DNA of 506 bases from Escherichia coli (GTDB taxonomy: Bacteria; Pseudomonadota; Gammaproteobacteria; Enterobacterales; Enterobacteriaceae), in assembly GCF_003334255.1 (NCBI RefSeq), contig NZ_QOWU01000230.1; one strand, 5' to 3'. A program made the translations under genes and the position numbers. Numbering within the stretch: position 1 is the stretch's first letter; the number at the start of each line of letters is the position of its first letter. This document shows positions 1 to 506 of the stretch, in pieces. The notes beneath the pieces were generated by a model. It ran no database searches. It was not told the origin of the DNA and saw only the letters and a program-made list of their open reading frames with translations.

Positions 1-5
1 CAAAT

Positions 6-34
6 GCCTGATGCGCTACGCTTATCAGGCCTAC
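6..34 (+). repeat. REP palindromic unit, Z2-type (copy 1)
   Basis: gcctgatgcgctacgcttatcaggcctac: 7-bp outer stem gcctgat/atcaggc (6-12 with 24-30), small internal mismatch, 2-bp inner stem with 3-nt loop, then the CTAC tail typical of REP. Matches the Z2 PU consensus as I recall it. Confidence 0.85.
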
Positions 35-51
35 AGATTCTTGCGCCATTC

Positions 52-85
52 GTAGGCCGGATAAGGCGTTCACGCCGCATCCGGC
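52..85 (-). repeat. REP palindromic unit, Y-type (copy 1), inverted relative to the Z2 unit
   Basis: The - strand reads gccggatgcggcgtgaacgccttatccggcctac: 7-bp outer stem gccggat/atccggc, 2x2 internal loop, 4-bp inner stem ggcg/cgcc with tgaa loop, CTAC tail. Matches the canonical Y PU / REP consensus as I recall it. Confidence 0.88.
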
Positions 86-98
86 AATGGTGACAAAT

Positions 99-127
99 GC
101 CTGATGCGCTACGCTTATCAGGCCTAC
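99..127 (+). repeat. REP palindromic unit, Z2-type (copy 2)
   Basis: Identical to 6-34, shifted by 93 bp. Confidence 0.85.
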
Positions 128-144
128 AGATTCTTGCGCCATTC

Positions 145-178
145 GTAGGCCGGATAAGGCGTTCACGCCGCATCCGGC
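145..178 (-). repeat. REP palindromic unit, Y-type (copy 2)
   Basis: Identical to 52-85, shifted by 93 bp. Confidence 0.88.
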
Positions 179-191
179 AATGGTGACAAAT

Positions 192-220
192 GCCTGATGC
201 GCTACGCTTATCAGGCCTAC
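192..220 (+). repeat. REP palindromic unit, Z2-type (copy 3)
   Basis: Identical to 6-34, shifted by 186 bp. Confidence 0.85.
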
Positions 221-237
221 AGATTCTTGCGCCATTC

Positions 238-271
238 GTAGGCCGGATAAGGCGTTCACGCCGCATCCGGC
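238..271 (-). repeat. REP palindromic unit, Y-type (copy 3)
   Basis: Identical to 52-85, shifted by 186 bp. Confidence 0.88.
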
Positions 272-284
272 AATGGTGACAAAT

Positions 285-313
285 GCCTGATGCGCTACGC
301 TTATCAGGCCTAC
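285..313 (+). repeat. REP palindromic unit, Z2-type (copy 4)
   Basis: Identical to 6-34, shifted by 279 bp. Confidence 0.85.
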
Positions 314-330
314 AGATTCTTGCGCCATTC

Positions 331-364
331 GTAGGCCGGATAAGGCGTTCACGCCGCATCCGGC
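331..364 (-). repeat. REP palindromic unit, Y-type (copy 4)
   Basis: Identical to 52-85, shifted by 279 bp. Confidence 0.88.
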
Positions 365-377
365 AATGGTGACAAAT

Positions 378-406
378 GCCTGATGCGCTACGCTTATCAG
401 GCCTAC
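378..406 (+). repeat. REP palindromic unit, Z2-type (copy 5)
   Basis: Identical to 6-34, shifted by 372 bp. Confidence 0.85.
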
Positions 407-423
407 AGATTCTTGCGCCATTC

Positions 424-457
424 GTAGGCCGGATAAGGCGTTCACGCCGCATCCGGC
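424..457 (-). repeat. REP palindromic unit, Y-type (copy 5)
   Basis: Identical to 52-85, shifted by 372 bp. Confidence 0.88.
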
Positions 458-470
458 AATGGTGACAAAT

Positions 471-499
471 GCCTGATGCGCTACGCTTATCAGGCCTAC
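471..499 (+). repeat. REP palindromic unit, Z2-type (copy 6; the window ends 7 nt after it, inside the linker)
   Basis: Identical to 6-34, shifted by 465 bp. The sequence stops at 506 within the tail-to-tail linker. Confidence 0.85.
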
Positions 500-506
500 A
501 GATTCT

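Follow-up and report, generated by a model that had tools for sequence, protein, structure and literature searches.

Tandem organisation of the array

The window (the whole stretch of 506 nucleotides of Escherichia coli DNA analysed here) is filled by a tandem repeat, for which Tandem Repeats Finder reports 5.4 copies with a period of 93 and 100% matches, and a family of direct repeats at 100% identity spans it. Each repeat contains two palindromic units, or REPs, of the Z2 and Y types, placed in opposite orientation and separated alternately by a 17-nt and a 13-nt linker (Table 1). Alternating inverted Y and Z2 units, here carrying the G/T discriminator together with a compensating partner, are a defining trait of the BIME-2 elements described by Gilson, Bachellier and Hofnung, as summarised in PMC3333891. 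The linker motifs of these elements are designated S within an element and s, l or r between elements, with a naming that differs between PMC3333891 and PMC4550694.

The other BIME-2 traits are present as well, namely tandem copies whose number varies among strains and an extragenic position, the orthologous arrays lying in the interval from the yahG stop to the yahI start. The window is a BIME-2 member by every criterion that can be tested. It has in common with other BIME-2 elements the alternating inverted Y/Z2 units, the short linkers, the tandem intergenic arrangement, the high similarity among the copies of a locus and the strain-variable copy number, and it differs from them in nothing essential, the window allele being only unusually homogeneous, with at least 5.4 identical units.

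Table 1. Coordinates of the sequence features in the window, given for the first copy unless stated otherwise
Feature	Position	Strand	Description
Tandem BIME-2 array	1..506		5.4 identical 93-bp units; features recur at +93, +186, +279 and +372, and also at +465 wherever the window length permits
Z2-type palindromic unit (REP)	6..34	-	Reads GTAGGCCTGATAAGCGTAGCGCATCAGGC on the - strand; the + strand terminates in CTAC (31-34)
Z2 local stem	6-13 with 23-30		Seen in minimum-energy folds
17-nt linker	35..51		Joins the GTAG ends ("heads") of Z2 and Y; loop of the long hairpin
Y-type palindromic unit (REP)	52..85	+	GTAGGCCGGATAAGGCGTTCACGCCGCATCCGGC; GTAG head at 52-55; assigned from sequence and folds
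Y local stem and inner stem	56-62 with 79-85; 65-68 with 73-76
13-nt linker	86..98		AATGGTGACAAAT; links Y to the following Z2 at their non-GTAG ends ("tails")
Linker segment pairing with 86-92	44..50	+	7 pairs, one of them G.U; lengthens the local Y hairpin in minimum-energy folds
Rfam RF02564 (naRNA4) match	55..124	+	Y hairpin, 13-nt linker and Z hairpin; 78 bits, gathering threshold 59.5
Further RF02564 matches	148-217, 241-310, 334-403, 427-496	+	Five in total at 78 bits
Inner inter-unit helix, 5' arm	21..34	+	13/14 Watson-Crick with 52-65; one pair beyond the first-pass annotation
Inner inter-unit helix, 3' arm	52..65	+	Contains the GTAG head
Outer inter-unit helix, 5' arm	6..15	+	9/10 complementary to 76-85; mismatch T9.C82
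Outer inter-unit helix, 3' arm	76..85	+	Partner of 6-15

Genomic context, copy number and unit types

Among 5,426 complete E. coli genomes, all of the best matches to the window lie between yahG and yahI. The array of K-12 MG1655 (about 339,757-340,116) has 3.9 units of three slightly differing types in the order A-B-C-C', the sequence of the 17-nt linker differs among the types A, B and C of this locus, and the unit of the window is type C. The genes that flank the orthologous locus lie on the strand opposite to the + strand of the window, so that read-through RNA of the operon would correspond to the - strand.

Across complete genomes the yahG-yahI array holds about 0.4 to 5.9 units and changes by whole-unit steps throughout, and single arrays mix unit types, some examples being A-B-C-B-C-C' and A-A-B-C-C'. 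Variation of copy number is already described for BIME-2 elements and has been ascribed to recombination and possibly to TnpA(REP) (PMC3333891). Four consecutive identical type-C units occur in none of the 5,426 complete E. coli genomes, in which the best match reaches 98.2%, and the metagenome contig OATN01000477.1 (locus L125, 247-705), at yahI/yahG, has the order A'-C-C-C-C'', that is, three C units and a near-identical truncated fourth. The homogeneous allele of at least 5.4 units in the window is either a rare and recently expanded one or a product of assembly.

These observations bear on an explanation in which single-strand folding is irrelevant, the array acting as duplex DNA (a site for gyrase or another protein, or a topological barrier) or being neutral selfish DNA, and in which copy number changes by unequal recombination or slippage at the 93-bp repeats without the help of hairpins. 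Changes by whole units agree with it, the mixing of unit types is what unequal exchange would be expected to leave behind, and in the K-12 array no promoter-like or intrinsic terminator-like site is predicted inside. Against it, the array is part of an operon-like run of genes and is thus probably transcribed.

Annotations of "YahH" or of a hypothetical protein overlie these arrays in RefSeq, with an annotated length that follows the repeat number. Frames 0 and 1 of the - strand are free of stop codons across the whole window because the period of 93 nt equals 31 codons, and the ORFs of the "YahH" type look like by-products of the repeat period. E. albertii carries an apparent single-copy orthologue of the yah unit (locus L043, 4064-4104), which shares the yahG-side flank ggcatgaaca and has a 17-nt linker one base different (agatccttgcgccattc), so that the unit would be older than the split between E. 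coli and E. albertii and its expansion would be lineage-specific. In E. coli XL1-Blue (NZ_CP081007.1, locus L001, 4,648,181-4,653,651), the array is found amid pseudogene fragments (IS, RHS, phage) and isolated tRNA genes, a placement away from yahG/yahI that suggests a patchwork stretch in the assembly.

The model RF02564 stands for naRNA4, a nucleoid-associated RNA known from a different BIME-2 (REP325), with transcription in the matching orientation and binding by HU among the traits of the family. Its consensus structure consists of two local hairpins; it covers the Y unit with its positions 1-31 and the Z2 unit of the next copy with its positions 45-77, and between them the 13-nt linker falls on that of the consensus. 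All matches above threshold run antisense to the yah genes, and the - strand, which is the operon sense, reaches 53.9 bits and falls under the gathering threshold. The + strand unit, by passing this threshold, resembles naRNA4/REP325 (Qian et al. 2015, PMC4550694), from which it differs in its location, REP325 being at yjdM-yjdN and the window at yahG-yahI, and in the shorter centre of its Z unit. Both hairpin motifs of naRNA4 are required for its activity, and the antisense RNA is also active in vitro (Qian et al., PMC4550694).

Complementarity between inverted units

The first-pass annotation had pointed out that positions 22-34 (TTATCAGGCCTAC) are complementary to positions 52-64 (GTAGGCCGGATAA) at 12 of 13 positions across a loop of 17 nt (35-51), and this is exactly what is found, with A27.G59 as the single mismatch. 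It covered only the inner half of the pairing: when the outer helix is included (Table 1), Z2, linker and Y make up one long imperfect palindrome. An equivalent pairing is possible across the 13-nt linker, between Y and the next Z2, and gives a second long hairpin, and the inter-unit feature recurs every 93 nt along the window. The 17-nt linker of the window extends the hairpin by two Watson-Crick pairs and one G.T pair, after a mismatch, and one of these linker-end pairs is lost in unit types A and B.

An arm pair with at least 12 of 13 complementary positions and a loop of 3-30 nt appears in 0.1% of 1000 dinucleotide-preserving shuffles of the 93-nt unit, and base composition is therefore no explanation for the complementarity. 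Y and Z2, however, are homologous palindromes in opposite orientation and as such are necessarily complementary to one another, and the common descent of the two units is a better null than shuffling. Pairing between inverted REPs, besides pairing within a REP, is said to have been discussed already in the early REP papers, in the 1980s.

The same architecture is known from REPINs (Bertels and Rainey 2011, PMC3116915), which consist of two inverted REPs with a short spacer and are predicted to fold into a single long hairpin. In the window, the spacer is 17 nt between Z2 (6-34) and Y (52-85) and 13 nt between Y and the next Z2. The long hairpin of an inverted REP doublet in single-stranded DNA or mRNA is thus described under the name of REPIN, for E. 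coli K-12 as well (PMC3116915, PMC3337134), and the idea of inter-unit pairing is not new because this concept has been published (PMC3116915). A search of the literature for phrases on inter-REP pairing returned REPIN papers only.

The window doublet also differs from REPINs: in Pseudomonas, both REPs are of one type and the spacers keep the hairpin by compensatory changes (PMC3116915), whereas the doublet studied here is heterotypic (Y/Z2) and has two built-in mismatches.

Predicted local and long hairpins

Minimum energies were calculated per 93-nt unit for the local fold and for the long hairpins across each linker (Table 2). According to the first-pass annotation, each unit has two ways of folding, into two local PU hairpins or into one inter-unit hairpin, and the predicted gap between these states is small enough to agree with it, at 0.4-3 kcal/mol for RNA and no more than about 1.5 kcal/mol for DNA. 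Secondary-structure prediction, the check proposed together with this claim, gives local and long folds that are nearly isoenergetic and not local hairpins only. Pairing between different copies of the array, likewise anticipated there, is thermodynamically plausible in the ensemble of the whole array.

Table 2. Minimum energies per 93-nt unit (kcal/mol)
Strand	Local	Long, across the 17-nt linker (head-to-head)	Long, across the 13-nt linker (tail-to-tail)
RNA, + strand	-40.8	-37.8	-38.8
RNA, - strand (yah operon sense)	-38.0	-38.4	-38.9
DNA, + strand	-23.8	-22.1	-23.4
DNA, - strand	-21.0	-22.5	-23.5

The + strand favours the local hairpins because the pairing of 44-50 with 86-92 lengthens the Y hairpin, and the G.U pair of this segment becomes a C.A mismatch on the - strand. 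As a DNA duplex, 44-50/86-92 has an energy of -6.3 kcal/mol, a stronger pairing than in all 101 unit flanks sampled in other genomes. At the pair 49-87, type B has C49/G87 and type C has T49/A87, a double change by which the pair is kept, and type A is mismatched (C49/A87). Flank-linker pairing as a general feature of BIMEs was considered and rejected, the 101 flanks giving -2.89 kcal/mol and the shuffled ones -2.78 kcal/mol (p=0.37).

The predicted fold also depends on where the molecule ends. The segment 55-124, which corresponds to the Rfam naRNA4 match, gives two hairpins on both strands, and 52-127, which is the same segment with the terminal GTA and TAC added, folds into one long hairpin on both strands; consequently, the two-hairpin drawing of naRNA4-like RNAs depends on the RNA ends that are chosen. 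The segment 6-85 likewise folds on both strands into one long hairpin, the one noticed in the first-pass annotation. The long hairpin expected of a REPIN is therefore the minimum-energy fold of 6-85 and of 52-127, and in the full unit its predicted energy is close to that of the local fold.

For the window as a whole at equilibrium, 1-10% of the pairing of each unit goes to the helix 22-34/52-64; contacts between copies, and those spanning the 13-nt linker, are commoner. This whole-array fold, dominated by long-range pairing between copies, is treated as a statement of degeneracy and not as a realistic structure. The barriers between local and long folds along direct paths are predicted at 16-19.5 kcal/mol for RNA and about 14-16 kcal/mol for DNA. 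They suggested a kinetic trapping in local hairpins, an idea that was dropped when a crude co-transcriptional heuristic, run with barrier caps from 9 to 20 kcal/mol, gave a mixture of local and inter-copy pairing at all of them. Prediction alone does not tell which fold the cell contains.

When the doublet is made homotypic in silico and the local stems are retained, the balance moves by 8-11 kcal/mol towards the long hairpin; the Y/Z mismatches thus hold the two folds close in energy in these calculations.

The energies can also be read in favour of the long inter-unit hairpin, of the REPIN type, as the functional form in lagging-strand DNA or mRNA, where it would serve as the unit mobilised or amplified by a transposase or as a barrier to 3' exonucleases. 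In addition to being the minimum-energy fold of both segments, the long hairpin is that of the full unit on the operon-sense strand, and REPIN papers propose a long functional hairpin, with the compensatory spacer changes of Pseudomonas (PMC3116915). On the other hand, the low share of the 22-34/52-64 helix in the array ensemble stands against this explanation, and further evidence on both sides comes from related doublets and from the proteins that act on REPs.

REP doublets in related enterobacteria

Head-to-head doublets were searched for in one genome per species with a pattern consisting of TATCNGGCCTAC, 5-35 nt and GTAGGCCNGATA. The scan gave at least 120 loci, mostly from E. albertii and three Citrobacter species, with at least 141 distinct doublets. 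When 141 doublets among the matches listed are folded in isolation at equilibrium, the inter-unit hairpin is preferred by 84-94% of the heterotypic and by about 100% of the homotypic ones. This dominance in natural doublets counts in favour of a functional long hairpin; since most isolated doublets fold in this way, the long-hairpin property is generic.

The discriminator positions behave differently. In the 98 doublets that could be scored out of 141 among the matches listed, the within-unit partner of the Y/Z discriminator forms a Watson-Crick pair in 91/98 and 94/98, G-C, T-A and C-G all being represented, and the between-unit partner does so in 20/98 and 13/98. What compensation keeps is therefore the local stems, not the helices between units, which argues against the long hairpin as the functional form. 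This covariation concerns one variable position per anchor arm because the search pattern fixed the remaining positions. The same compensatory changes also count against the explanation by duplex DNA alone, as they imply selection, or a copying mechanism, that acts on a folded single strand.

A spacer that extends the hairpin, as in REPINs, is not seen in these genomes: the 95 distinct short linkers among the matches listed have 1.04 Watson-Crick pairs per 4 outer positions, with 0.96 in shuffled linkers (p=0.18), and thus extend the hairpin no more than chance. Unlike the Pseudomonas spacers, the enterobacterial short linkers among these matches have no complementarity that would maintain a long hairpin.

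Heterotypic doublets are enriched in E. albertii, where they are found at 37/45 loci (p=7e-6), and also in C. youngae, and the enrichment is absent in C. werkmanii, in each case among the matches listed. Because the long fold of heterotypic doublets is 8-11 kcal/mol weaker, their enrichment in Escherichia among the matches listed is a further point against a functional long hairpin; it may, however, simply reflect doublets that were copied as whole units.

Counted by doublets among the matches listed, Y is combined with Z in 46/54 head-to-head doublets of E. albertii (loci L042-L090), and in C. werkmanii (L005-L041) Y-Y is the largest class, with 19/33 typed doublets. The rule of Y/Z alternation is not universal in enterobacteria. 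Exact enterobacterial REP doublets were also observed in a MAG of soil Proteobacteria, a Bacteroidales MAG and a 262-bp Desulfosporosinus contig (L103, L104 and L105, respectively), and in these three records they are likely contamination with enterobacterial DNA.

Proteins and RNAs that act on REP sequences

The REPIN concept includes a cognate RAYT that accompanies and mobilises the elements, a role that falls to TnpA(REP). This transposase, encoded by E. coli, cleaves and recombines BIMEs in vitro (PMC3333891). What it binds is a local REP hairpin whose 5' GTAG is single-stranded (PMC3479197, PMC3333891); in the crystal structure this hairpin has an internal mismatch, and the 5' GTAG is splayed and unpaired (PMC3479197). 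The Y unit of the window (52-85) resembles the REP oligonucleotide that was crystallised with the protein (PMC3479197). The inter-unit helix pairs GTAG with CTAC and would therefore sequester the very tetranucleotide that TnpA(REP) binds as a single strand, so that the TnpA(REP)-bound state and the long hairpin should exclude each other.

The requirement of TnpA(REP) for a local hairpin, an internal mismatch and a single-stranded GTAG (PMC3479197) does not suit a long hairpin as the form that is mobilised. Together with the covariation and the linkers, it makes it unlikely that the long hairpin is the functional form.

Gyrase cleavage counts in favour of a role as duplex DNA. Topo-Seq data show it in some BIME-2 elements only, where it favours Y units over Z2, tracks a higher duplex motif score and rises when transcription is blocked (PMC6379681). 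Published models rest on local hairpins or cruciforms, and the cleavage is explained by the duplex motif and the preference for Y, no role for inter-unit pairing being needed or reported (PMC6379681). The accessible part of the supplementary text of PMC6379681 makes no mention of yahG, yahH or yahI. Nevertheless, REP RNAs and TnpA(REP) act on hairpins (PMC4550694, PMC3479197), which is at odds with an array whose single strands do not matter, and in view of this and of the compensated local stems an action as duplex or neutral DNA alone appears improbable.

The literature search found no structure probing, gyrase or 3' end data for the yahG-yahI array, and nothing in the literature found ties the flexibility of the fold to gyrase binding or to the protection of mRNA 3' ends.

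REPs reportedly stabilise mRNA, for example at malE-malF, by downstream hairpins that block 3'-5' exonucleases, as Newbury et al. in 1987 and Khemici and Carpousis in 2004 are said to have described. The array resembles such stabilisers in having REP hairpins, probably transcribed, downstream of a gene, and either the intra-REP or the inter-REP fold may be the blocker.

Significance of the alternative folds

With a probability of roughly 60%, the window is a tandem Z2/Y BIME-2 in which the inter-unit pairing is a by-product of the architecture and the local hairpin is the conserved and recognised structure. Each unit is complementary to itself, to the two adjacent ones and to those of its kind elsewhere in the array. 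The pairing of 22-34 with 52-64 is the inner half of a long hairpin open to an inverted REP doublet and would not have evolved as an element of its own. The local fold and the two long-hairpin folds of single-stranded RNA or DNA are predicted to be nearly isoenergetic, a balance that exists because both Y/Z discriminator positions pair within the unit and mismatch between units, and the predicted winner changes with the strand and with small differences in the flanks. Conservation, and recognition by the known partners, point to the local hairpin.

The inter-unit pairing itself is real, energetically competitive, automatic for inverted REP doublets and already known. Thermodynamics alone does not argue for local hairpins, since the lowest predicted energy belongs to the long hairpin in isolated doublets and in this unit read in the operon sense. 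Beside what was obtained directly (complementarity, energies, covariation, locus identity and copy-number variation), we infer that in vivo it is the local hairpin that functions and that the long one lacks a dedicated role. The links drawn in the first-pass annotation from structural flexibility to gyrase binding, mRNA protection and replication slippage are speculation and unsupported, and a role in slippage cannot be told apart from what perfect 93-bp direct repeats, or amplification mediated by TnpA(REP) (PMC3333891), would bring about.

That Y/Z alternation may set the balance between folds is only a slightly new angle, based on calculation in silico, and the copying of whole doublets would be a simpler explanation. 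Taken further, the strict Y/Z alternation of Escherichia could be a device that tunes the balance between local and long folds, in which case heterotypic doublets would be favoured for keeping local hairpins accessible or for making the units bistable switches; heterotypy might also avoid long near-perfect hairpins, which would be substrates for double-strand RNases or hairpin nucleases. We regard this tuning as very doubtful, and the enrichment in E. albertii and C. youngae is compatible with it and with the copying of doublets as whole units equally well.

If the balance between folds matters in vivo, it bears on the stabilisation of mRNA by REP arrays and on how the REP-associated transposase finds its substrate, as well as on the Y/Z alternation of Escherichia. 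Moreover, two-hairpin drawings of BIME-2 transcripts such as naRNA4 should be taken with caution, as one of several near-isoenergetic predictions: a prediction of the naRNA4 type flips when each end gains three bases.
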